Shown here: in pieces, positions 3,291 to 61,178 of the stretch
Position numbering within the stretch: the stretch's first letter is position 1
How the letters are laid out: every line of letters starts with the position of its first letter
Assembly (NCBI GenBank): GCA_900549285.1
Contig: URNW01000001.1
Location: forward strand, 32,252 to 96,251
DNA length: 64,000 nt
Reading direction: 5' to 3'
From: an uncultured Mycoplasmatota bacterium
Lineage (GTDB): Bacteria > Bacillota_I > Bacilli_A > RF39 > UBA660
Notes under the pieces: model-generated
The model's input: only the letters and a program-made list of their open reading frames with translations
The model's database searches: none
Told to the model about the DNA's origin: nothing
Made by a program: the position numbers and the translations under genes

Positions 3291-3449
3291 GTTATAGAAA
3301 TTGAAAAAGGAAAGCGAATTTTATTCCACCTGATGAATAAAGGTTCATAGGTAAAAAGCCATAATAGTTTAATATTAATGAGTTTTTTAAGGTGGAATAG
3401 TATTATTCTACCTTTTTAAATTATATGGAGGTGCGTAAGTATAGCAAGT
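3291..3449 (+). ncRNA. L20-leader-like autoregulatory leader/attenuator of infC-rpmI-rplT.
   Basis: About 160-nt untranslated leader. Long-range complement ATTCCACCT (about 3322) with AGGTGGAAT (about 3391). Hairpin GGTGGAATAGtattATTCTACC followed by TTTTT (about 3391-3418), i.e. a terminator/attenuator just upstream of the infC RBS. Matches the known L20-mediated attenuation architecture in Firmicutes. Confidence 0.5.
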
Positions 3450-3965
3450 GTGAATAAAGAGTTACCAATTAATGAGCAAATCAAAGTAGAAGAACTAATG
3501 GTAATAGGTCCAAATGGAGAACAAATGGGACTAAAAAAAATAGAAGATGCTCTAACTTTATCAAGATATGCGGGTTTAGATTTAGTTTTAATGAATGATA
3601 GTGGCAAAATGGCTGTAGGTAAAATTATGGACTACAATAAATACCGCTATGAACGTCAAAAAAAATTAAAAGAAGCCCAAAAAAAACAAAGAGAAACTAA
3701 TAAAGAATTAAAAGAATATCGTTTATCTACTACAATAGATGTTCACGATTTTGAAACTCGTGTTAGAAATGCAAAAGAGTATTTAATAAAAGGGCATAGA
3801 ATTAAAGCATTTATTCGCTTTAAAGGTCGTCAAATGGCAAGACCTGAATTAGGACGTGATGTTTTACTAAGATTTGCTGAAAGTTTAAGTGATGTTTCAA
3901 GTATAGAGGCAGAACCTAAATTAGATGGTAGACAAATGTTTATGCTATTAGCACCCAAAAAATAG
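3450..3965 (+). CDS. infC: Translation initiation factor IF-3.
   Basis: IF3 N- and C-domain sequence (EQIKVEELMVIGPNGEQMGL..., ...GRQMARPELG...). GTG at 3450. An in-frame ATA at 3441 sits 7 nt after the GGAGGTG RBS and is an alternative atypical start. Confidence 0.9.
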   Translation: MNKELPINEQIKVEELMVIGPNGEQMGLKKIEDALTLSRYAGLDLVLMNDSGKMAVGKIMDYNKYRYERQKKLKEAQKKQRETNKELKEYRLSTTIDVHDFETRVRNAKEYLIKGHRIKAFIRFKGRQMARPELGRDVLLRFAESLSDVSSIEAEPKLDGRQMFMLLAPKK

Positions 3966-3979
3966 TAGGAGGATATATT

Positions 3980-4174
3980 ATGGCAAAGTGCAAACAAAAA
4001 ACACATAAAGCAAGCAGCAAGGTTTTAACAAAGAAAAAGAATGGAACTTTAACTTACAAAAAATCAAACGGAAATCATAAGACAAACAAAGATTCAGCAA
4101 AACAAGTACGCCAAAGAAGAAATAAAGGTATTTTAGGAAAAGGAGAAGCTAGCAGATTAAAATCTGTTATCTAA
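3980..4174 (+). CDS. rpmI: 50S ribosomal protein L35.
   Basis: 64 aa, highly basic, placed between infC and rplT. Confidence 0.85.
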   Translation: MAKCKQKTHKASSKVLTKKKNGTLTYKKSNGNHKTNKDSAKQVRQRRNKGILGKGEASRLKSVI

Positions 4175-4186
4175 GGAGGTTAAAAA

Positions 4187-4717
4187 ATGACAAGAGTTAA
4201 AGGTGGAAGTGTTTCCAAAACAAGAAGAAGAAAAGTTTTAAAAGAAGCAAAAGGATATTTTGGAAGCAAACATAGATTATATAAAACAGCACAAGAGCAA
4301 GTTTTCCATAGTGGAGCATATGCTTTTAGAGACAGAAAACAAAACAAACGTAATTTTAGAAAATTATGGATTACAAGAATTAATGCAGCTTGTCGTGAAA
4401 ATGAAATCAGTTATTCTAAATTCATGAATGGATTATCTAAAGCTGGAATTGAAATCAATCGTAAGATGTTAAGTGAAATGGCTATTGATAATTCTAATGC
4501 ATTTGCTGAATTAGTTAAAATTTCTAAAGATGCCTTAAATGGTAAAATGCCTGTTAAAAAAGCAGAATCAAAAAAAGAACCAAAAGTTGAAGTTCAAAAT
4601 CAAACAAAAGATTATAGTAAAATGACCTTATCAGAACTTAAAGCAATAGCTAAAGAAAAAGGAATTAAAGGTTATTCTACAATGAAAAAAGAAGAATTAA
4701 TTACAAGTTTAAATTAA
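4187..4717 (+). CDS. rplT: 50S ribosomal protein L20 with an approximately 55-aa C-terminal Rho_N/SAP-like extension.
   Basis: Residues 1-120 are canonical L20. The C-terminal tail has a Lys-rich linker, then [28 protein letters not shown], which matches the Rho N-terminal-domain (Rho_N) motif. Confidence 0.9.
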
Positions 4718-4740
4718 AAGAGCCCTAAAGCTCTTTTTTG
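4717..4740 (+). terminator. Rho-independent terminator after rplT.
   Basis: AAAGAGC-cctaaa-GCTCTTT followed by TTTTT. Confidence 0.6.
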
Positions 4741-4766
4741 TTATAAATGAAAGTGATGATTCTAAA

Positions 4767-6119
4767 TCACATAAATTTATTAAATTTTTCAATAAAAGAA
4801 AATAGCCACTGATCAGTTAAAGAAATGGAAGTAATAGAAACACATTCTTTTGTCGAATGAGCATTTAATATTTTAGAAGAAATAATAGCAACTTGTAAAT
4901 CTTTCATTTTTTCTTGAAAAAAGCCTACTTCAACAGTTATATGAGCTAATGTAACATTAGGCACCTTAGAATATGGAGAAGAATCTTGAAGAAGTTTAAC
5001 GAATGAAGAATTTGCATCAGAATAAAAGCCTGGTTGATATCCGATAATTTGCAGTGTAAAATTATAACATTCTGCATAGGCTTTTAGTTTTTCTAATGTG
5101 ATATTAGCTTCATTCTCTCTAGAACTTCTAAGTCCAATCTCTAATCTTTGATCGTGAATTACGCCTAAATTTAATGAAGTTGTAACTAATTTTTTTTCGT
5201 TAAAATAAAGAGCTTTACTAGGGAATTTTACTAAAAAATCTAATAGTAAAGAGGAATTGCTATAATAATGAGAATGAAAATCAATTTCATGAAATGTAAC
5301 TGCTAAATTAGGATATTTTTTTTGATATTTATCTAGAAAAGATGATATTTTTGATAGAATAATACTTTCATCACTATTAATAATAGCTTCTGCTTTTGAA
5401 GGAAAAACATTATTTTTAGTACCACCATCAATACAAATTACTTCTCCATCTATGCTTTTGAGTAATTCTGCCATTAATAAAATAGCATTACCACGTTTTT
5501 TATTGATATCATATCCCGAATGTCCTCCAAGTAGGCCACTTAAAAAAATAAAATAAGAGTGTTCATATTGTCCTTTTTTAGTCTTTCGTTCCTTCGGTTC
5601 TATAAAAAGATCATAATAGGCTGCTGATTCAGTTAAAATTGTATTTTCTTCAAATCCATCTAAATTAAGTAAATATTTTCCACTTAAAAGTGTTGAATCA
5701 AGATGAATAGCACCATCCATAGTTGTTTCTTCACTAGTAGTAAAAACAGCTTCAATATTACAAGGAAAATCGCTATCTAAAACGTTCAGAATTTGAGCTA
5801 CTCCAATACCATTATCAGCTCCAAGAGTAGTATTAATAGCAGATAAATAATCATCTATTTCTTGAATTTGAATAGGCATTTTATCAAAATCAAAATTTGC
5901 TATATCACTTACACACACCATATCCGTATGAGCCTGTAAAATGAGGCAAGGAAAACGCTTATCTACTTTCTTAATGATCACATTATGATATTCATCTTCA
6001 AAATAAAATAAATTTCTTTCTTTAGCAAATCTAACTAAATATTTAGCAATATTTGCTTCGTTGCCAGATTCACGAGGAATCTTCGCTATTTCTTTAAAAA
6101 AATGAAGGGTTTTATTCAT
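4767..6119 (-). CDS. pepD: Aminoacyl-histidine dipeptidase (M20C, PepD-like).
   Basis: 450 aa. M20 motifs (HTDMV, GADNGIGV, TTSEETTMDGA). Confidence 0.8.
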   Translation of the reverse strand: MNKTLHFFKEIAKIPRESGNEANIAKYLVRFAKERNLFYFEDEYHNVIIKKVDKRFPCLILQAHTDMVCVSDIANFDFDKMPIQIQEIDDYLSAINTTLGADNGIGVAQILNVLDSDFPCNIEAVFTTSEETTMDGAIHLDSTLLSGKYLLNLDGFEENTILTESAAYYDLFIEPKERKTKKGQYEHSYFIFLSGLLGGHSGYDINKKRGNAILLMAELLKSIDGEVICIDGGTKNNVFPSKAEAIINSDESIILSKISSFLDKYQKKYPNLAVTFHEIDFHSHYYSNSSLLLDFLVKFPSKALYFNEKKLVTTSLNLGVIHDQRLEIGLRSSRENEANITLEKLKAYAECYNFTLQIIGYQPGFYSDANSSFVKLLQDSSPYSKVPNVTLAHITVEVGFFQEKMKDLQVAIISSKILNAHSTKECVSITSISLTDQWLFSFIEKFNKFM

Positions 6120-7065
6120 GGATTCTCACTCTTCCTTTTCTTCTAGAAGGGCTTCGATCATTTCCTAATTCAGTGCCGTTAGGTTTTATAATAACATCAT
6201 CTATATCAATATCTTTATTTTCAAGTTCATAAAAAGCAACTAAATTTTGGTCATCAAAATTATAAACTCCTGGCTTTATTTCCTTATCTTGTAAATGATA
6301 TTTTATATTTTCTAATAATCCTAGAAATAGTGGTTCTGTATTTTGAAATTCAAAAGGAATAACTCTACTTGTGCAAGGTTTATCATCAAAATAAAACTTA
6401 ATTACAAAAGTAGGAGCTTCCAATAATTCTTCATCTTTTGTTAAAGTATAATATCCAACAATCTTACCATGAATCTTAGCATTTAGAGTATCTCTCAAAT
6501 ATTTAGCTCCACCTTTTGCTCCATTAATACTCATATAGTTACGGCAATCTGCTACAAAAATAACATCAAAATGCGGTAAAATAGATTGATACTTTACTAA
6601 AGCTTCTAACACAATTTCATAAATATGTTTGCCTATATTTTTAATGCTATTATTTTGCTTTACTAAAATTCCTGTAACTTCAAAGAAATTTCGATCAGGA
6701 ATAGGATAATAAGGATTTGTATATTGGGAATTATTTTGATAATATTTAATGGTTGCAGCCCCTAAGATATCCAAAAATCCGTCTATTTCTTGATACGCAA
6801 GAATGATAGGGTATTTCATGTAGTTATCTAATATTGTTTTGACATCAGGAATATGAATAAAATCTGCATTACCTAGCCAATTTTCATCATAAAAATTACT
6901 GATTTTCCCAATGATATCTATTAAAGAATTAATATTTTGAAATCGTTCTTCGCATTGCAAAACACAAAAATGTACTTGATCATGATATTTTTTACTAATT
7001 CGTACACATTCTTGAGTAAATAATTGATAACAATTCATAGATTTTTTAAAAAATTTTTCATTCAT
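6112..7065 (-). CDS. Hypothetical protein, co-transcribed with pepD.
   Basis: 8-nt overlap with pepD. The likely start is the ATG at 7065, preceded by GGAGGAG, rather than the track start at 7125. Confidence 0.5.
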   Translation of the reverse strand: MNEKFFKKSMNCYQLFTQECVRISKKYHDQVHFCVLQCEERFQNINSLIDIIGKISNFYDENWLGNADFIHIPDVKTILDNYMKYPIILAYQEIDGFLDILGAATIKYYQNNSQYTNPYYPIPDRNFFEVTGILVKQNNSIKNIGKHIYEIVLEALVKYQSILPHFDVIFVADCRNYMSINGAKGGAKYLRDTLNAKIHGKIVGYYTLTKDEELLEAPTFVIKFYFDDKPCTSRVIPFEFQNTEPLFLGLLENIKYHLQDKEIKPGVYNFDDQNLVAFYELENKDIDIDDVIIKPNGTELGNDRSPSRRKGRVRIHE

Positions 7066-7413
7066 TTTTTTCTCCTCCATTTTATAAGGTATAAAAAAAC
7101 CATGGCAATTTACTTGAGAACGCAAAAAGCCATGGTAAAAACCATATTTCTTGATAAGCGCTCCGTATTTTCATACGACAGTGAATTATATATTCTATAA
7201 TCCCCCAGAAAAGAAAACGGCAGATACATTTTCTTAACTTCGGCAATTTTTCCTTTCATAATTTAGCAATAATCTGCATACCTAAATTCCTACTAATAAA
7301 AATTGCAACCTCTTTCAAGTGGTTTTAATTGTACCATTATTTAATTCAAATGTCAAACACTCTTTTTTTTTAGAAAAAATAATGATATAATTATTCCATT
7401 GTGTGGTGATAAA

Positions 7414-7944
7414 ATGAAAATATATTTAGTTGCGGGAAAATCTGGTTCTGGAAAAGGAGAAGTAGCCAAAATTATAAATGAGTATTATTTATCTTTAAAT
7501 CAAAAGCCCATTATAACGAGTTTTAGTAAATATATTAAAATGTATGCTAAAGAAATAATTGGTTGGGATGGAAATGAACCTAAACCACGTAAATTTTTAC
7601 AAGATTTAGGAGTAACGATAAAAGAAAATATGGACATGCCTTTGTTTTTTGTAAATAGAATGATCGAAGATATTAAGATATACTCTTTATATCGAGATGT
7701 AGTAATTATAAATGATGTAAGACTACCAATAGAAATAGACGAATTAAAAAAGACTTTTAATAATGTTTATTCTATGTATGTTATAAATCAGTTTGCACCA
7801 AGCAAATTATCAATAGAAGAACAAATGCATATTACAGAAACCGCCTTAGAGAATTATAGCAACTTTGATATTACAATCGTAAATGATACTATTGAAAAGC
7901 TAGATAATCGCGTAATTAATTTTATAGAAGGAGTAGAAAAATGA
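7414..7944 (+). CDS. P-loop nucleoside/nucleotide kinase-like protein.
   Basis: Walker A AGKSGSGKG near the N-terminus. 4-nt overlap with alaS. The likely start is the ATG at 7414. Confidence 0.55.
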   Translation: MKIYLVAGKSGSGKGEVAKIINEYYLSLNQKPIITSFSKYIKMYAKEIIGWDGNEPKPRKFLQDLGVTIKENMDMPLFFVNRMIEDIKIYSLYRDVVIINDVRLPIEIDELKKTFNNVYSMYVINQFAPSKLSIEEQMHITETALENYSNFDITIVNDTIEKLDNRVINFIEGVEK

Positions 7945-9692
7945 ACTTAAAAGATAAATTCATTAAATATTTTGTTGAGCATGATCATGTAGAGATCCCT
8001 AGTGCACCATTAATTCCTGAAAATGATCCAACGGTATTATTTAATACGGCAGGAATGCAACCTTTAATTCCTTATTTATTAGGAGAAAAGCATCCCTTAG
8101 GAAAAAGATTATGTGATGCTCAAAAATGTGTACGATTAACTGATTTAGATGAAATTGGTGATAAAACTCATCATACCTTCTTTGAAATGCTTGGAAACTG
8201 GAGTTTAGGAGACTATTTTAAAAAAGAAAGCATTGAATACAGTTACGAGTTTTTAACCAAAGTATTAAATATTCCCAAAGAGCGTTTAGCCGTTACAGTT
8301 TTTGAAGGCAACGAAGATATACCTAGAGATGAAGTATCAGCAGATATTTGGAAAAAATTAGGAATAAAAGAAGAAAGAATCGCTTATTTAGGAGTAGAAG
8401 ATAATTTTTGGATAGCAGGAGAAACTGGACCATGCGGAGGCGATACAGAAATTTTTTACTTTCGGAGTGAAGATAAAATTCCAGAAGTCTTTGATCCGAA
8501 AGATGATCGCTGGGTAGAAATATGGAATAACGTTTTTATGGAATTTCATAAAGATAAAAATGGGAAAATTACTGAATTATCTCAAAAAAATGTAGACACA
8601 GGAATGGGTTTAGAAAGAGTAGTAGCCATATTAGAAGGAGTGGTAGATAATTATAAATCTTCTATTTGGAAAGAGATTATATCATCAATAGAAAATATAA
8701 GTGGAAAGACTTATGAAGGCAATGAAAAGAGTATACGTATTATTGCCGATCATATTCGTACGAGTGTTTTTATTAGTGCTGATCCTGCTGGAATTAAGCC
8801 AAGTAATAGAGATCAAGGATATATATTAAGAAGACTAATTAGAAGAGCTATTCGTCATGCTACATCCCTTGGAATTAATACAAATGAAAATTGGATGGAA
8901 CCAATTGCTTTAGAAGTAATAAAAAAATATGAAGATTACTACTCTGAAATTAAAGAAAATAAAGATGTTGTATTAGAAATATTAAAAAATGAAAATGCAA
9001 AATTTAATCGTACACTAGAAAAAGGATTAAAAGAATTTGATAAATTATTAACTCATATGGTGGGAGATATGATTGATAAAGATCAAGCTTTTAAATTGTA
9101 TGATACTTATGGTTTTCCAATTGAGCTAACTGAAGAGATGGCCAAAGAAAAAGGCTTAAAAGTAGATATAAAGGGATTTCAAGAAAAATATAAAGCTCAC
9201 CAAGAACTTTCCCGTACTGCCTCTAAAGGAAAATTTAAAGGTGGATTAATGGGACATAGTGAAATCGAAACGAAATACCATACAGCTACACATTTATTAA
9301 ATGCGGCCTTAAAAATAGTGGTTGGAAGTACTGTTCATCAAAAGGGAAGTAATATTAATGAAGAAAGAATGCGTTTTGACTTTTCTTGTGATCATAAACT
9401 AACAGAAGATGAAAAAAATGAAGTGGAGCAATTAGTTAATAAGTGGATCCAAGAAGATTTACCAGTTACTATGCAAACCATGAAAAAAGAAGAAGCAATA
9501 AAAAGTAAAGCCGAGGCTATGTTTATTGAAAAATATGCGGATATAGTAAATGTATATAGTATCGGTGATGTTTCAAAAGAAATATGCGGCGGCCCTCATG
9601 TTAAACACACAAATGAATTAGGACATTTTAAAATAATCAAAGAAGAGGCAAGTAGTGCAGGAGTTAGAAGAATAAAGGCTATCTTAGAATAG
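7941..9692 (+). CDS. alaS: Alanine--tRNA ligase, compact form (583 aa) with no C-Ala domain.
   Basis: Class II AlaRS motifs (FNTAGMQP, WNNVFMEF, GMGLERV). Editing-domain motifs HTATHLL and CGGPHV near the C-terminus. The protein ends shortly after the editing core. Confidence 0.9.
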   Translation: MNLKDKFIKYFVEHDHVEIPSAPLIPENDPTVLFNTAGMQPLIPYLLGEKHPLGKRLCDAQKCVRLTDLDEIGDKTHHTFFEMLGNWSLGDYFKKESIEYSYEFLTKVLNIPKERLAVTVFEGNEDIPRDEVSADIWKKLGIKEERIAYLGVEDNFWIAGETGPCGGDTEIFYFRSEDKIPEVFDPKDDRWVEIWNNVFMEFHKDKNGKITELSQKNVDTGMGLERVVAILEGVVDNYKSSIWKEIISSIENISGKTYEGNEKSIRIIADHIRTSVFISADPAGIKPSNRDQGYILRRLIRRAIRHATSLGINTNENWMEPIALEVIKKYEDYYSEIKENKDVVLEILKNENAKFNRTLEKGLKEFDKLLTHMVGDMIDKDQAFKLYDTYGFPIELTEEMAKEKGLKVDIKGFQEKYKAHQELSRTASKGKFKGGLMGHSEIETKYHTATHLLNAALKIVVGSTVHQKGSNINEERMRFDFSCDHKLTEDEKNEVEQLVNKWIQEDLPVTMQTMKKEEAIKSKAEAMFIEKYADIVNVYSIGDVSKEICGGPHVKHTNELGHFKIIKEEASSAGVRRIKAILE

Positions 9693-9748
9693 GCTTTATT
9701 TTTAATTAAAAATATGGTATGATAAATATTATAGAAGAGGTGGATTAG

Positions 9749-10846
9749 ATGACAATACTAAGCATAGGAAGAACGAGCTATGATATTACTTGCCCAGTAG
9801 ATGAATATCCCGTAGAAGGAACCAAATATTTATTAAACGAGAAAATTGAATCAGGTGGAGGAACAGCAGCAAATGTAGCTTATCTGCTTGGAAAATGGGG
9901 AGAAACATCCTATTTTGCAGGAGTAGTAGGATCGGATGATTATGGTTCTCAAATTCGTAAAGAATTAGAACAAGTCATGGTGAAAACGGAATTAATGGAA
10001 AATTCTTATGAAATTGGAACGCCTGTATCTGTCATTTTAGTAAATAAAAAAAATGGAACCAGAACAAGATTTGATATTGTAAGTGCCACTCAACCTCAAT
10101 TAAAAAAATATGAATATACATTAGCACCAGATGTTATATTTACAGACGGAAAAGAATATAGTGCAACGATCAATGCTTTAAATAGATTTCCTAAAGCAAT
10201 AAGTATTTTAGATGCTGGAAGAGTAGACAGAGACTTATTAGAATTATGTAAATATGTAAAATATATAGTCTGTTCAAAAGGTTTTGCAGAATCAGTAAGT
10301 GGTTTAAAAATAGACTATAATAATTCTGCTACTCTTGTCCAAGTATATAAAAAATTAAAGGATCGTTATCCCAATAATAATATTGTAATTACTTTAGAAA
10401 ATATGGGTGCAATGTATTCTTATAATGGTGAAATAAAAATTATGCCAGGTATAAAAACAAAAGTCGTAGATCCTAGTTGTGCAGGAGATATTTTCCATGG
10501 TGCCTTTGCATACTGTCTAGCAAATGGTTTTGATTTAGAAAAGGCTATTACATATTCCAATATTACTGCAGGACTATCTGTTGGCAAGATGGGAGGACGA
10601 GTTTCTATTCCTAATTTAAAAGAAGTAATCAATTACTATAATCAAAAATTTCAAATTGTAGAAACACCACCAGTAGAGGAGAAAAAAGTTGAGCCAACAA
10701 ATGAAGAAAAGCTTCCTGATATTCCAGATCCTAGTAAAATAGTAATGCCTACAAATACTAATAATGTAGAATCTGGAAGTACCTTTTTTGGTGGATCAAC
10801 AGCCATTCCTAAAATAGAGCCAAGCAATGACGGAAATGTTCACTAG
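9749..10846 (+). CDS. PfkB-family carbohydrate kinase with a Pro/Glu/Thr-rich C-terminal tail.
   Basis: GG motif near the N-terminus. PfkB signature DPSCAGDIFHGAF. An approximately 80-aa low-complexity C-terminal extension. Confidence 0.75.
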   Translation: MTILSIGRTSYDITCPVDEYPVEGTKYLLNEKIESGGGTAANVAYLLGKWGETSYFAGVVGSDDYGSQIRKELEQVMVKTELMENSYEIGTPVSVILVNKKNGTRTRFDIVSATQPQLKKYEYTLAPDVIFTDGKEYSATINALNRFPKAISILDAGRVDRDLLELCKYVKYIVCSKGFAESVSGLKIDYNNSATLVQVYKKLKDRYPNNNIVITLENMGAMYSYNGEIKIMPGIKTKVVDPSCAGDIFHGAFAYCLANGFDLEKAITYSNITAGLSVGKMGGRVSIPNLKEVINYYNQKFQIVETPPVEEKKVEPTNEEKLPDIPDPSKIVMPTNTNNVESGSTFFGGSTAIPKIEPSNDGNVH

Positions 10847-11096
10847 TGCTTCACCCGTATTAAATGTCCATGGTGAGACAACAGATACAGTTGTATTTTT
10901 TCTAAATGATTTTATAAAAGATAATGTAAAATTAAAAAATACATATATAGGGATTATTCATGGTAGAAGCTCTAATATTCTACGAAACCGTATTCATGAA
11001 TTGCTGAAACAAAATAAATTAGTTGATTCTTATAAAATAAATATTTGGAATCCAGGAATGACGATTGTAAAATTAAAAATTGATAAAAATCAATAG
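10827..11096 (+). CDS. Smr-domain protein.
   Basis: Smr core (LNVHGETTD..., IIHGRSSNILRNRIHELL). The start may be the ATG at 10836. Confidence 0.65.
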   Translation: MTEMFTSASPVLNVHGETTDTVVFFLNDFIKDNVKLKNTYIGIIHGRSSNILRNRIHELLKQNKLVDSYKINIWNPGMTIVKLKIDKNQ

Positions 11097-11120
11097 TAAA
11101 AAGTTAATTTTTACGCTAAT

Positions 11121-11149
11121 TTGACAAATAGATTTAAATATGCTATAAT
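11121..11149 (+). promoter_or_regulatory. Promoter for the two-gene hypothetical operon.
   Basis: TTGACA, 17-nt spacer, TGcTATAAT. Confidence 0.45.
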
Positions 11150-11179
11150 GAACATGTAATTGAAATAGGGGGTTAAAAT

Positions 11180-11599
11180 ATGAAAGGTTATGTTTTAGAT
11201 TACATTAATGAAAACGAATTTAAAAAACTAGAAAGAGCATTAAAAAAATATAATATGCTAGCTTTTAAGAAGTTAAATTTTGATTATTATCCAGCACTTA
11301 GAAATGGTAAATTTGTTGGAGAACTAATAAGTACAAATAAAAAAGAACAAACTGCTAAATATGAGCTTAAATTACCAAGTGATAAAATGTTTGCAGCTGT
11401 TCACGGGGAAGTAAAACTTTATTATACTGTCTACTTAAAAGAAGGTACAATTATGCTTGATACAATTACACCAACTGAAATATTGTTAGAAGGACATATG
11501 AGTGAACTTGCAACATATAAAGGAATAATGATATCAAAAGCGAATGCATCTAAAGATAAGTTTAAAATTGATTTATTAAATATGTTACAAGAAAAGTAA
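11180..11599 (+). CDS. Hypothetical protein (139 aa).
   Basis: ORF with RBS GGGGG. No recognisable motif. Confidence 0.5.
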   Translation: MKGYVLDYINENEFKKLERALKKYNMLAFKKLNFDYYPALRNGKFVGELISTNKKEQTAKYELKLPSDKMFAAVHGEVKLYYTVYLKEGTIMLDTITPTEILLEGHMSELATYKGIMISKANASKDKFKIDLLNMLQEK

Positions 11600-37385: not shown

Positions 37386-37444
37386 TTGACAACTACCTTT
37401 TGGTGTGATAAATTATATTTAATATAAGGTAGCTATTATCTACC
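37386..37444 (+). promoter_or_regulatory. Promoter of the 37503 gene, with palindromic operators.
   Basis: TTGACA, 17-nt spacer, TGaTAAATT. Near-palindrome GGTGGTTGACAACTACC overlaps the -35. Inverted repeat GGTAG-ctattat-CTACC at 37428-37444. Confidence 0.4.
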
Positions 37445-37502
37445 ATTATAAATATTTATTTATTAAAGTAAATGAAGCATAACATCACAAAGGAGAGTAA
37501 CT

Positions 37503-58004: not shown

Positions 58005-58187
58005 CTAATTGTTATTACTCCAGCTCCATCCAGCGCCAATAATAATAACAAGTAAAATAAATAAGACGATCCATATAGCGGCTCCTATACCATAGCCACT
58101 TGTATATCCAGCATATCCTGTATTACAACAAGGTTGGTATCCACCATAGCCACCGCCATAGTAGCCATTATTTCCATAATAATACAT
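58005..58187 (-). CDS. YjcZ-like Gly/Tyr-rich small membrane peptide (sporulation-associated family).
   Basis: MYYYGNNGYYGGGYGGY... then the TM segment IWIVLFILLVIIIGA, as in YjcZ-family peptides. A terminator hairpin AGGAAGA-aagt-TCTTCCT lies downstream on the minus strand (57989-58006). Confidence 0.5.
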   Translation of the reverse strand: MYYYGNNGYYGGGYGGYQPCCNTGYAGYTSGYGIGAAIWIVLFILLVIIIGAGWSWSNNN

Positions 58188-58309: not shown

Positions 58310-59482
58310 GTGTTATTAGTGAAGAAACTATTTAGTAAAATGGACAAATGGTTGTTAATTTTAATGATTATATATAGTATTGTAGGATTAATTATGATTT
58401 TTTCCTCATCAAGTGTATCCACTGTATTAAGATATAATGTTCCCCAATACCATTTTTTTCTTAGACAAGCCATTTTTTTATTAGGAGCATTTATCATTGG
58501 CTTTTTAATTGTAATACGTTTTCCAACAAGCAAGTATAAATATATAGCTCCTTTTGCCATTATAGGCATCATTGTAGCATTACTAGGATTACTAATCTAT
58601 GGACAATTAACCAATAATGCACGAAGCTGGTATGATTTAGGTCCTTTTGCTTTGCAACCAAGTGAGTTTGCTAAATCTATTATTATTGTTTTTTTAGCAG
58701 TTGCATATAGTAGATTAGAAAAAAGAAAAACTGGAAATATTTATGCGTTTTTATTTCCAGTAGCAATATGCTTAATAATAGCTATTTTAATTGCAATGCA
58801 GCCTGATTTTGGTACAGCTCTTATTATATGTGGAATCATCTTTTTTATTTTTATAAGCATTCCTTTTGTTAAAAAAAATATTATAAAAGTATTAAAAATT
58901 GGTGGTGTTTGTTTAGTAGTAGCAGTTTTAGCTCTACTTTATAGTAATACAGAAATATTTAACTCAAGGCAATTGCAGCGTTTTGAATTTCGCAATCCTT
59001 GTGAAAGATATACAGAAGATACAGGATATCAAGTATGTAATGGTTTTATAGCAATTCATAATGGTGGATTATTTGGAGTAGGATTAGGAAATAGTAGTCA
59101 AAAATATTTATATTTACCAGAAAGTCATACTGATTTTATTTTTCCAATCATTGTAGAAGAGTTAGGATTAGTAGTTGGGATAGTATTAATAGTTGGTTAT
59201 ATGGTAATGTTGTGGCGAATTTTAATTATTGCTAGACAGGCAGAAAATTTAAGATTAAGTATTTTAGCTTACGGTGTATTTTTATATCTTTTGTTCCACA
59301 TATTAATTAATTTATTGGGTATTTTAGCCCTAATACCTTTAACTGGAGTTCCACTTCCGTTATTAAGTTATGGTGGTTCTTTTACCATTAATGTAGTGCT
59401 TATGCTCTTTGTCGTAGAAAGAGTATCAATTGAAAATAAAACAATCAAAGCCAAAAGAGAAATGGCTCAAATAACAAATTAA
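58310..59482 (+). CDS. ftsW: FtsW/RodA/SpoVE-family peptidoglycan glycosyltransferase.
   Basis: 10-TM SEDS protein with conserved motifs (PDFGTA, LPESHTDFIF). Confidence 0.85.
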   Translation: MLLVKKLFSKMDKWLLILMIIYSIVGLIMIFSSSSVSTVLRYNVPQYHFFLRQAIFLLGAFIIGFLIVIRFPTSKYKYIAPFAIIGIIVALLGLLIYGQLTNNARSWYDLGPFALQPSEFAKSIIIVFLAVAYSRLEKRKTGNIYAFLFPVAICLIIAILIAMQPDFGTALIICGIIFFIFISIPFVKKNIIKVLKIGGVCLVVAVLALLYSNTEIFNSRQLQRFEFRNPCERYTEDTGYQVCNGFIAIHNGGLFGVGLGNSSQKYLYLPESHTDFIFPIIVEELGLVVGIVLIVGYMVMLWRILIIARQAENLRLSILAYGVFLYLLFHILINLLGILALIPLTGVPLPLLSYGGSFTINVVLMLFVVERVSIENKTIKAKREMAQITN

Positions 59483-59512
59483 AAATCGTAAAAATAAATT
59501 ACGATTTTTTTC
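59482..59512. terminator. Bidirectional terminator.
   Basis: AAAATCGTAA-aaataaa-TTACGATTTT followed by TTT. Confidence 0.6.
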
Positions 59513-59729
59513 TTGGATATGGTTTTCTTTCATCTGTTAAATCTAGAAGATAATCAACACTAGTATTATAAAATAAGGCTAGTTTAATTAAAGAATTTTT
59601 GTCAATACTTATTTCTCCGCTTTCATAGCGAGAATATGTTTGCTGACTGACATTTAAAATTTTAGCAATGTCTTTTTGAAACAAATCTCTATCTTCTCTG
59701 ATATCTTTAAGTTTTTCCATAACTATCAC
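59499..59729 (-). CDS. XRE-family HTH regulator.
   Basis: FQKDIAKILNVSQQTYSRYESG HTH. Divergent from the 59874 gene. Confidence 0.75.
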   Translation of the reverse strand: MIVMEKLKDIREDRDLFQKDIAKILNVSQQTYSRYESGEISIDKNSLIKLALFYNTSVDYLLDLTDERKPYPRKKS

Positions 59730-59763
59730 CGATTGTAATTTTACAATATTCGTAAAAAGTGTA

Positions 59764-59792
59764 TTGACTTATACGCGTAATATGCGTATAAT
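59764..59792 (+). promoter_or_regulatory. Promoter of the 59874 gene, with a palindromic operator.
   Basis: TTGACT, 17-nt spacer, TATAAT. Inverted repeat TATACGC-gtaatat-GCGTATA (59770-59790) spans the spacer and -10. A second inverted repeat ATACAC-gttataa-GTGTAT lies just downstream. Confidence 0.45.
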
Positions 59793-59873
59793 ATTATTAA
59801 AATACACGTTATAAGTGTATAAAATAATAAAAAATAATTAAATGAAGCATAGCGTCATGTTAGGAGAAATAAT

Positions 59874-61178
59874 ATGGAAATAGAAACTTTAAAGAAAAGC
59901 CATTTAAAAAGAAATATTGTAATAGCTGTGGTAGTAGTAGCAATTATTAGTGCAATAGTACTTAATTTTACAAGGGCAAAATATAAAAATACAGAGTCAA
60001 TACCACTAGTAAATGGAACAATTAACTATACACCATATGATTTAAAAATGGTTGCTATGTATCAAGAAGAAAATGGAGATTATAAAAGTATAGATACAGT
60101 ACCAACTAGTGGATATACTTTAAATGAAGAGAAAAGCTATTGTGAGGTAAATGATGCAAAAGATGACAACATATCTATGGAATATAAAGATGGTAAAGTA
60201 TATATAGGAGTAAGTAAAAAAGGAACAAAATGTTATTTGTATTTTGATATACAAAATCAATATTTAGTAAAGGAATATCTTCTATCTAAATATCAAACAA
60301 TTTTAGCAAGAAATGATTTTAATGTAGCTTTAACTGAAAATACAACAGGAATAATTTATCAAGGTGAAGATAATGATGGGCAAACATACTATTTTGCAGG
60401 TAATCCCACTGATAATTGGGTCAAATTTGCAGGATTTTACTGGAGAATTATAAGAATCAATGGAGACGGAACGCTAAGACTAATATATAACGGAATAAAT
60501 GCGGACGCTACAGGTGATAACACTTCGATAAAATTAGGTTCGTTTAATAACGATCGCACAAATAATATGTATGTTGGCTATAAATATACCAATAATGAAA
60601 TTCATGGTTTAAATTATGAGAGTACAATACTTATAGCATTAAATGAATGGTATCAAACAAATTTACAAAGTTATTCAGCGTATATTGATATTAATGCTGG
60701 TTTTTGTGGAGATCGGGAACCAAGTACAAACAATACAATCAGTAATGGTTCAGGAGGAACAGGAACAACAAATACTTATTATGCGTCATATATTAGATTA
60801 GTTGCTAATAAAAACCCAACATATAAGTGTAAAAGTAATGATTTATATACCACAAGTAAGAGTAATAAGGGAAATAAATCTTTATCTAATCCCATAGGAT
60901 TAATTAGTGCAGATGAAGTAGCCTATGCGGGTGGCTCAAGCAGTATATCAAATAACAATTACTTTCTTTTTTCGAAAGGCTCATATTGGACCATGTCGCC
61001 ATATTTTTTCTATAATAATGGAGCATATGTATTTTATGTTGATTGGTATACAGGTAAATTAGCCTATTTTTCTGTTAGTTCCAGTGCAGTGGGTATACGC
61101 CCAGTTATTAATCTAGCTAGTGATGTAACAATAAAAAGTGGGAATGGAACATCTAAAACACCGTATGAGATTAGTTAA
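59874..61178 (+). CDS. N-terminally anchored extracellular protein of unknown function (434 aa). Paralog of 37503-39191.
   Basis: See 37503-39191. Same N-terminus (M.IE.LK.SHLKRN..I.....AIISAIVLNFTRAKYK..ESIPL.NGTINY) and the same internal and C-terminal motifs. Confidence 0.6.
   Translation: MEIETLKKSHLKRNIVIAVVVVAIISAIVLNFTRAKYKNTESIPLVNGTINYTPYDLKMVAMYQEENGDYKSIDTVPTSGYTLNEEKSYCEVNDAKDDNISMEYKDGKVYIGVSKKGTKCYLYFDIQNQYLVKEYLLSKYQTILARNDFNVALTENTTGIIYQGEDNDGQTYYFAGNPTDNWVKFAGFYWRIIRINGDGTLRLIYNGINADATGDNTSIKLGSFNNDRTNNMYVGYKYTNNEIHGLNYESTILIALNEWYQTNLQSYSAYIDINAGFCGDREPSTNNTISNGSGGTGTTNTYYASYIRLVANKNPTYKCKSNDLYTTSKSNKGNKSLSNPIGLISADEVAYAGGSSSISNNNYFLFSKGSYWTMSPYFFYNNGAYVFYVDWYTGKLAYFSVSSSAVGIRPVINLASDVTIKSGNGTSKTPYEIS

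Follow-up and report, generated by a model that had tools for sequence, protein, structure and literature searches.

Between ftsW and a spoVB-like gene of an uncultured Mycoplasmatota bacterium of the RF39 lineage lies a compact module of two divergent genes, which from their sequences appear to specify a 73-amino acid (aa) XRE regulator of the HTH_3 helix-turn-helix (HTH) type and an exported protein of 434 aa. The stretch of DNA analysed, hereafter the window, covers 64,000 nucleotides of contig URNW01000001.1 (positions 32,252 to 96,251; GenBank assembly GCA_900549285.1) at a G+C content of 26.5%. RF39 bacteria have small genomes (1.5-1.9 Mb), which have been recovered solely as metagenome-assembled genomes (MAGs; PMC7301438). 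The locus is probably, though by no means certainly, a repressor-gated surface-protein module with a lectin-like head. The evidence that carries this proposal is the conserved pairing of the two genes, the candidate operators that overlap the structural gene promoter (Table 1), the co-variation of those operators with the recognition helix of the regulator, and the predicted architecture of the exported protein.

The module belongs to a large family. Homologues of the structural protein number more than 5,270 at 90% clustering, and at 50% clustering they form 10,408 clusters at E <= 1e-3 or 3,356 at E <= 1e-30, some members being giant, with up to 12 matched stretches. At least 579 stretches of species-representative genomes encode relatives; among the best 80 of these, the hosts are almost all MAGs of uncultured gut 'Bacilli', 'Mycoplasma sp.' (e.g., CAG:776), 'Mycoplasmatota' and Candidatus Caccenecus, and even these 80 amount to 5 to 11 or more copies per MAG. 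Pairing with a regulator was assessed at 62 evaluable loci from the longest divergent open reading frame (ORF) starting within 600 bp upstream, and 48 of the 56 distinct ORFs so found carry HTH_3 or HTH_19. These XREs are of two kinds, a single-HTH form of about 75-80 aa, as in the window, and a double-HTH form of about 150 aa. The outer flanks of the cassettes are unrelated housekeeping genes, for example tsaD, glyS, rpoC, dnaB and gyrB; the conserved unit is the two genes. An earlier note on this DNA, made from the sequence alone, had treated the pair as a cassette, and a true recurring unit it is. At seven other loci (L029, L030, L038, L040, L053, L080 and L082; L-numbers designate individual loci) two or three family genes stand in tandem. 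Copies further down such an array align only from about residue 56-160, and therefore probably have different N-termini.

The coordinates that had been claimed for the two genes are borne out by the list of ORFs, and translation of the regulator probably begins at the ATG at 59720, which follows GGTGAT; the product is then 73 aa long, as in the gene calls on identical metagenome contigs. The regulator matches Pfam HTH_3 (PF01381) over residues 7-61 above the gathering score (53.5 bits, cut-off 23) and shows 55-70% identity to the small regulators found in other cassettes. Its nearest solved relatives, by sequence match, are Pli0006, ImmR of ICEBs1, PezA and CylR2, and its best-scoring families are phage repressors (phrog_8, E 1.6e-20; RstR-like, E 1e-13). 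The C-terminal tail, DYLL.LTDERKPYP, is conserved. The small XREs as a group (window 59499-59720, L018, L022, L037, L060, L064, L066, L069, L084 and L085) share the tail DYLLGLTDERKPYPKSIL after the HTH domain, which could be a degron or a partner-binding motif.

The 153 bp between the two genes hold a sigma-70-type promoter directed towards the structural gene, in which TTGACT (59764-59769) and TATAAT (59787-59792) are separated by 17 nt and transcription would be expected to start at about 59799. Promoter matches at 11 of 12 positions are not rare in the window (13 found against about 7 expected), so it is the position of this one, together with its conservation in about 60 homologous loci, that makes it credible. 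The earlier note had described the promoter as embedded in two palindromes. The promoter stands as described, at a distance conserved in most of the family loci, and both palindromes lie where the note placed them, TATACGC/GCGTATA within the inverted repeat TTATACGCGTA/TATGCGTATAA at 59769-59791 and ATACAC/GTGTAT with its arms at 59802-59807 and 59815-59820. The two 19-bp candidate operators that they outline, O1 and O2, are the sole occurrences of ATACRC-N7-GYGTAT (allowing one mismatch) in the 64 kb, where 0.22 would be expected; two matches to the pattern were reached in 2 of 100 shuffles, and the tandem pair in none of 100. A weaker third operator, O3, may also be present, the left arm of which fits the half-site at 4 of 6 positions and which is kept in L088 and L089. 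Transcribed into RNA, O2 would also be predicted to form a hairpin.

Table 1. Features of the cassette at the ftsW-spoVB site and of the second cassette in the window (positions are those of the window)
Feature	Position	Strand	Basis or remark
73-aa XRE gene	59499..59720	-	ATG start at 59720; mechanical ORF extends to GTG 59729
434-aa structural-protein ORF	59874-61178	+	ORF list
Sigma-70-type promoter of structural gene, TTGACT-17-TATAAT	59764..59792	+	11/12 matches
Possible weaker third operator O3, ATATTCGTAAAAAGTGTAT	59746..59764	.	Right arm GTGTAT abuts or overlaps the -35 box
Candidate operator O1, ATACGCGTAATATGCGTAT, 19 bp	59771..59789	.	Palindrome; fills the spacer and overlaps the -10 box
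Candidate operator O2, ATACACGTTATAAGTGTAT, 19 bp	59802..59820	.	Palindrome; about +3 to +21, 31 bp (about 3 helical turns) from O1
Family-specific leader box, AATGAAGCATAGCGTCAT (consensus AAATGAAG-N5-CTTCAY)	59841..59858	+	Pattern search
AT-rich hairpin, AAAAATCGTAA / TTACGATTTTT	59481..59509	.	Sequence reading; overlaps the stop codons of the convergent ftsW and XRE genes
Copy-1 XRE regulator, 73 aa	37105..37326	-	ORF and HTH match
Copy-1 promoter, TTGACA-17-TAAATT	37386..37414	+	10/12 matches
Copy-1 leader box, AATGAAGCATAACATCAC	37471..37488	+	Pattern search; right arm degenerate
Copy-1 paralogue, 562 aa	37503..39191	+	Inserted segment between stalk and head

This arrangement is common to other cassettes. 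A promoter with 10-12 of 12 matches is found in nearly all family loci, and in most of them some 85-100 nt separate the end of its -10 box from the ATG. Ten cassettes with a small XRE were analysed (the window, L088, L089, L064, L066, L069, L085, L037, L012 and L060), every one of which has two similar 19-bp units, 28-33 bp apart, and in nine of the ten (L060 differs) the first unit begins 7 nt after the start of the -35 box. The tandem-palindrome score was reached by none of 100 shuffles for the window, L088, L089, L064, L066, L069 and L085, and by 2-8 of 100 for L012, L060 and L037. L064, L060 and L066 have a clear third palindrome abutting the -35 box. When the window is aligned with L088 and L089, the -35 box and the arms of O2 are conserved and the operator centres vary; the arms of O1 are largely conserved, its left arm differing at two positions in both L088 and L089, and the -10 box is intact in L088 and one base different in L089.

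The best available support for binding of each XRE to its neighbouring palindromes is indirect, and comes from the co-variation of recognition helices with operator arms. The helix SQQTYSRYE accompanies arms ATACRC in the window, L088 and L089, and SQTGYS(Q/K)YE accompanies ATAA(C/G)CTAAAATA(A/G)GTTA in L066, L085 and L037, while TQVQYSRYE is found with TATAAC..GGATATA in L022 and L018. Other helices have other arms: TQQQYSKYE has ACACTT (L064), KQQQYSEYE has ATACAAG (L060) and TQVAYSCYE has ATAGC(G/A)AA (L069). The same helix is thus found with similar operators and different helices with different arms. The promoter embedded in palindromes, which the earlier note read as a repressor-operator layout, is a conserved design, with arms kept in sister species and, across cassettes, changing with the helix. 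Cassettes with a double-HTH XRE (L004, L009, L024, L034, L045, L048, L056, L067 and L074) have a near-identical promoter, TTGACTTTTnnTCTAGCTnnAnTTATAATTTAAnTATAAGCTAGGAAAC, even between paralogues within one MAG; in these regulators the C-terminal HTH is conserved and the N-terminal HTH variable, which hints at shared plus private recognition.

The structural protein begins with a conserved basic tail (residues 1-14) that runs into a hydrophobic helix (11-34). An AlphaFold2 model built with 39 homologues (pLDDT 86.4) shows this helix at residues 11-34, followed by a disordered but conserved linker (35-57), a beta-sandwich (60-126) and a domain spanning 140-434 with pLDDT above 90, and points to an immunoglobulin (Ig)-like stalk that carries a distant DUF6273-like, that is C-type-lectin-like, head. 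Alignment of the homologues reveals that Cys90, Cys120, Cys278 and Cys319 are invariant, as is A35 within the motif TRA|KY after the hydrophobic helix, a pattern consistent with an extracytoplasmic protein. From its sequence TRA|KY could be a signal-peptidase site, so that a protein the earlier note called anchored may really be secreted; the anchoring is uncertain given that the invariant motif may allow cleavage.

The fold class of the head is indicated by its best matches among models of viral proteins, which are gut-phage DUF6273 proteins (E 6e-5 to 3e-4, with low TM-scores of 0.25-0.28), and by weak matches of 19 of the 39 close homologues to PF19789 (best E 8.5e-5). Some motifs of the head also appear to correspond to those of DUF6273, presumably IGLISADE to FLLS..E, YWTMSP to WWLRSP and GIRPVINL to GVRPALWL. 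The head is therefore best regarded, from the models, as a probable distant member of this fold class with a ligand-binding role. In NCBIfam the protein has a spurious, sub-threshold match to FvfA (17.9 bits against a cut-off of 130), and neither PHROG nor PADLOC returned a match. Two published accounts describe DUF6273 as a C-type-lectin-like fold that is targeted by diversity-generating retroelements (DGRs) in gut phages, and infer a receptor-binding role for its phage members from models and by analogy with Mtd (PMC10743442; bioRxiv 10.1101/2024.10.15.618418).

Taken as a repressor-gated module, the locus would work as follows. The structural gene would be read from the near-consensus sigma-70 promoter, a kind of promoter that needs no activator, with a leader of about 75 nt. 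The 73-aa XRE would serve as a private repressor, dimers of which would bind cooperatively to O1 across the spacer and -10 box and to O2 downstream, and perhaps to O3 at the -35 box, thereby occluding RNA polymerase and holding off a strong constitutive promoter; it would probably regulate its own promoter as well. We infer repression rather than activation, and binding of the XRE to O1 and O2, from the sequence arrangement. Release, possibly through titration, through proteolysis by way of the TDERKPYP tail or through stochastic loss of the autoregulated repressor, would free one particular lectin-headed protein for display. This protein would be exported by means of its N-terminal signal or anchor helix, and its Ig-like stalk would display the ligand-binding head, the function of which would most likely be that of an adhesin or receptor for glycans or other gut surfaces. 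Cassettes of the small-XRE type would be switchable independently because each has its own operator matched to its recognition helix, and a leader box shared across the family (see below) would add a second, family-wide layer of control. Many independently addressable modules, with heads that diverge fast or are exchanged, would together produce a variable adhesive surface. In this last, population-level switching scheme we have much less confidence than in repressor gating at the single locus.

Several observations weigh against this proposal. An XRE neighbour is absent at 8 of the 56 loci, the regulator has no sensor domain in its 73 aa, and no confident promoter of its own could be assigned, the several weak candidates being kept in neither L088 nor L089. 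The spacing of O1 and O2 varies from 28 to 33 bp among cassettes, and strict helical phasing is therefore not universal. As regards the head, the 434-aa protein has no Pfam match at E <= 0.1, PF19789 included, and no significant match to a solved structure by profile or by Foldseek, and the lectin assignment is drawn from the low-scoring predicted-structure matches and weak homologue profile matches given above.

An alternative account of the same DNA would have the palindromes serve only for autoregulation of the XRE, or the XRE act as an activator, leaving the structural gene roughly constitutive or under the control of the leader box. The XRE promoter must indeed fall within the 153 bp between the two genes, no element other than the leader box is common to cassettes with unrelated XREs, and 8 of the 56 loci are without an XRE. 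However, O1 in the spacer and -10 box of the structural promoter and O2 over the predicted start are in classic positions for occlusion, the geometry relative to the structural promoter is itself what is conserved among the small-XRE cassettes, and a promoter so near to consensus makes an activator unnecessary. We consider this account unlikely, while granting it a real if minor share of the probability.

The history of the cassette at this site can be followed in related genomes. The earlier note had suggested that the cassette was acquired or duplicated into conserved core synteny. A metagenome scan with the SpoVB-like protein recovered seven related loci. In five related contigs (L088, L089, L090, L091 and L093) a family gene lies directly beside spoVB, with SpoVB 85-90% identical to that of the window, and in the three that reach ftsW (L088, L089 and L091) the XRE is present and 85% identical, with ftsW (FtsW 89-95% identical) beyond it; the contigs of L090 and L093 end within or just past the family gene. 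No bare ftsW-spoVB junction was seen in any of the loci compared. The cassette is thus a long-term resident of the site within the genus, because congeners keep it there, and recent acquisition is contradicted. The surrounding synteny is conserved among congeners, as the note had it, but is itself rearranged further afield: in L062 (SpoVB 73% identical) a cassette adjoins an inverted dtd-relA-comN-spoVB block, and in L092 (69%) spoVB has neither a neighbouring cassette nor ftsW.

What varies at this conserved site is, on comparison of the sequences, the content of the structural gene, in particular its hypervariable head, rather than its presence. Residues 1-128 and the head are respectively 67% and 26% identical to the window protein in L089, 61% and 52% in L088, and 52% and 52% in L093; in L091 the structural gene survives only as a truncated 3' portion. 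The 408-aa protein of L089 (1312-2538, minus strand) keeps the signal, linker and stalk and has a different, distantly related head, which looks like the head swapping of phage receptor-binding proteins. In L088 a frameshift in a run of eight A's, with the junction near 8385-8392, breaks the structural gene (7337-8649, minus strand) into two ORFs, one of 92 aa and one of 334 aa. Nine A's would restore the frame, and the shift could reflect slipped-strand phase variation or an assembly error. The same locus has three extra genes between XRE and ftsW (9063-11400), which from their sequences look like GrpB-like, Nudix/NrtR-like and NAD-kinase-like genes, and variation seems to concentrate locally at the ftsW-spoVB site. 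A separate observation comes from an IMG/VR contig, L096, where adjacent exported proteins of 870 aa and 532 aa (3306-7539) have window-type and L089-type heads, respectively, the former following a stretch rich in glycine; the contig is perhaps not of viral origin.

These comparisons also bear on whether the module is a remnant of a prophage or mobile element, a 'moron' consisting of a phage-type repressor and a receptor-binding-like protein dropped between core genes. The family scores of the XRE and the fold matches of the head both lead to phages, and cassettes occur at many unrelated chromosomal sites. Against this, the cassette has no integrase, transposase or other phage gene beside it in the window, and the gaps to the neighbouring stop codons, 16 bp on the ftsW side and 28 bp on the spoVB side, leave no room for attachment sites or terminal repeats. 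IMG/VR holds only three contigs with a relative, which match in the head alone at 37-39% identity, the structural protein is without a PHROG match, and the site is conserved across congeners in five related contigs. Such an origin is accordingly rather improbable.

Given that DUF6273 domains are DGR targets in gut phages (PMC10743442; bioRxiv 10.1101/2024.10.15.618418), the head could be a DGR variable target, in keeping with its hypervariability between species. Nothing in the window conforms to this: there is no template-like repeat of the gene, the paralogue being the only repeat, and no ORF longer than 150 aa has the YxDD motif of reverse transcriptases. Within the species, eleven variants of 98-100% identity, drawn from about 100 metagenome contigs, depart from the window protein at only 1-8 residues, which are scattered and mostly N-terminal, and have no C-terminal variable region. 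DGR targeting is rejected within the window and must be considered very improbable. Equally improbable, and likewise rejected, is an invertible, phase-variable promoter: 17-nt inverted repeats (59734-59750 and 59790-59806) do bracket the promoter, but their arms are only 82% complementary in DNA of 26% GC, are not conserved in L088 or L089 and on the right overlap the -10 box, and no recombinase gene lies near the cassette. An anti-phage defence system or toxin-antitoxin pair was discarded too, in view of the lack of a PADLOC match and the presence of a signal or anchor helix and four invariant cysteines.

The leader of the structural gene contains a second conserved element. The leader box ends 3 nt before the Shine-Dalgarno sequence AGGAG (59862-59866). 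A search of the window for AATGAAG-N7-TCAY found two matches and no more (0.15 expected), at 37471 and 59841, both of them about 33 nt ahead of the start codon of a family gene, and among the 94 fetched loci the box is present in 40, once per locus and nearly always about 33 nt before the ATG, two off-position matches being due to chance. It is found irrespective of the kind of XRE, including in cassettes whose XREs are unrelated. The left arm, AATGAAG, never varies among 32 distinct sequences, and the right arm, CTTCAY, hardly does; in the alignment of the window with L088 and L089 the arms are conserved and the loop varies, the right arm in the window carrying substitutions. From this conservation the box may mark a control layer common to the cassettes, acting either as a DNA site or as an RNA element. 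Thirteen loci without a leader box (L003, L017, L020, L021, L025, L028, L032, L033, L038, L040, L043, L053 and L082) have another conserved element, AGTTTTGACAAGTTTTGTCGAA, about 85-100 nt before the ATG, and several of these have no adjacent XRE.

A plain RNA hairpin is not established for the leader box. In the 32 sequences 86.6% of cells pair, with the innermost pair alone covarying (UA 14, CG 8, UG 2), and the hairpin is worth -5.4 to -5.5 kcal/mol in typical members and -3.0 and 0 kcal/mol in the two copies of the window. The minimum-energy fold of the window leader (59799-59885) instead pairs UCAUGUUA with UAAUAUGG (-10.5 kcal/mol, z -3.2), a structure that competes with the leader-box hairpin, hiding the start codon and placing the Shine-Dalgarno sequence in a loop; the L004 subtype can form an alternative hairpin that masks the Shine-Dalgarno sequence. 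A search of the leader against Rfam at E <= 10 gave noise only and no known RNA family. An upstream ORF from the conserved ATGAAG was also rejected, as no Shine-Dalgarno sequence precedes it and the frames, which range from 'MK-stop' to 14 aa, encode no conserved peptide. Nor do we take the box for a cre, Rex or other known site, since its spacing and centre presumably do not fit.

The second cassette of the window lies at 37.1-39.2 kb. Compared with the 434-aa protein, its 562-aa paralogue shows 57% identity in the N-terminal 128 aa and 40% in the C-terminal 290 aa, and half-sites CTACCTT and AAGGTAG, as read from the sequence, surround the -10 box of its promoter. The two XREs have a generic HTH in common and nothing further (E 0.004). 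The claim that the cassettes mirror each other therefore stands for their organisation only: the structural genes are paralogous, the XREs are unrelated beyond the HTH fold, and the operators differ. Copy 1 too has a structural gene that varies at a kept site: at the orthologous locus L010, LepA and the XRE are 90% identical to those at copy 1, and the structural gene gives a tblastn match of only about 430 aa, against 562 aa in the window.

The immediate flanks of the cassette at the ftsW-spoVB site are an FtsW/RodA family gene (TIGR02614, E 1e-80) and a SpoVB-like gene (TIGR02900, E 1e-91), both under the curated cut-offs, with Post_transc_reg (ComN-type) and RelA further on. The AT-rich hairpin between ftsW and XRE has only two G-C pairs and was not flagged by a terminator scan; it is possibly a weak bidirectional terminator. 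The minus strand between def and ftsW has, at 58005-58187, an ORF of 60 aa that is rich in Gly and Tyr and has a hydrophobic helix at its C-terminus (MYYYGNNGYYGGGYGGYQPCC...); it is a gene call in identical contigs and has no Pfam match on record.

Each part of this module has known counterparts: mini-repressors of the CylR2/ImmR/Cro type with their palindromic operators in the one case, and lectin folds of the DUF6273 kind in the other. As in CylR2 of Enterococcus faecalis (1utx), ImmR of ICEBs1 (7t8i) and lambda CI/Cro, to which the comparison is made through sequence matches to solved proteins, the regulator is a single HTH_3 domain of 66-75 aa, encoded divergently from its presumed target, with two or three palindromes overlapping the core promoter. 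In lambda, CI and Cro act at tandem operators between divergent promoters. Here, however, the presumed target is one surface-protein gene rather than a toxin operon, mobile element or phage, the cassette has no CylR1-like sensor, ImmA-like anti-repressor or protease, or second regulator, and the same layout recurs many times in a genome, with operators private to each copy.

Known DUF6273 (PF19789) systems comprise the phage tentaclins, Mtd-like DGR targets and the N-terminal domain of the Thomasclavelia IgA protease ThomasA. The window protein has its best, though low-scoring, fold matches among the phage members, half of its close homologues have weak Pfam matches, and it is presumably extracellular and fast evolving, but it falls under every Pfam threshold and its head, at about 290 aa, is longer than the Pfam domain. 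Unlike the phage members it is chromosomal and is fused to a family-specific signal, linker and Ig-like stalk, and there is no DGR in the window. As with the multigene surface-variation families of reduced-genome Mollicutes and other host-associated bacteria, such as vsp, vlp and vsa of Mycoplasma and the invertible-promoter loci of Bacteroides, there are many paralogous surface-protein genes per small genome, and the exposed parts diverge rapidly while the N-terminal export regions are conserved. In contrast to them, the proteins are not lipoproteins, and neither invertible promoters nor site-specific recombinases nor switches driven by repeats are present; control appears instead to lie with a dedicated repressor for each gene.

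No paper mentioning DUF6273, in the portions available, is about this protein family, and a search of the literature on RF39 surface proteins found nothing relevant. In the literature found, the protein family, the repeated one-to-one pairing of repressor and structural gene with diverged operators, and the family-specific leader box are undescribed. If the switch is not as we infer, the locus is simply another XRE-regulated surface-protein gene. The co-varying helices and operators may offer a compact natural set of orthogonal repressors of 73-80 aa with 19-bp operators that could be reused in synthetic biology, and through the leader box a new regulator might be found, acting at the transcriptional or post-transcriptional level.

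A more ambitious possibility, which we regard as speculative and put forward with considerable reserve, is that the cassettes form a distributed array of lambda-like epigenetic switches, in which dozens of lectin-headed proteins, each with a private repressor and operator in the small-XRE copies, and with a shared leader box bound by a family-wide factor, are displayed as adhesins in combinatorial or mutually exclusive fashion. Were this so, antigenic or adhesive variation would be achieved without DNA rearrangement, with heads swapped between species in the manner of phage receptor-binding modules. For these RF39-like gut Bacilli, a family of thousands of exported lectin-like proteins, with many copies per small genome, is a leading candidate for the means by which these organisms attach to the host or to other microbes.

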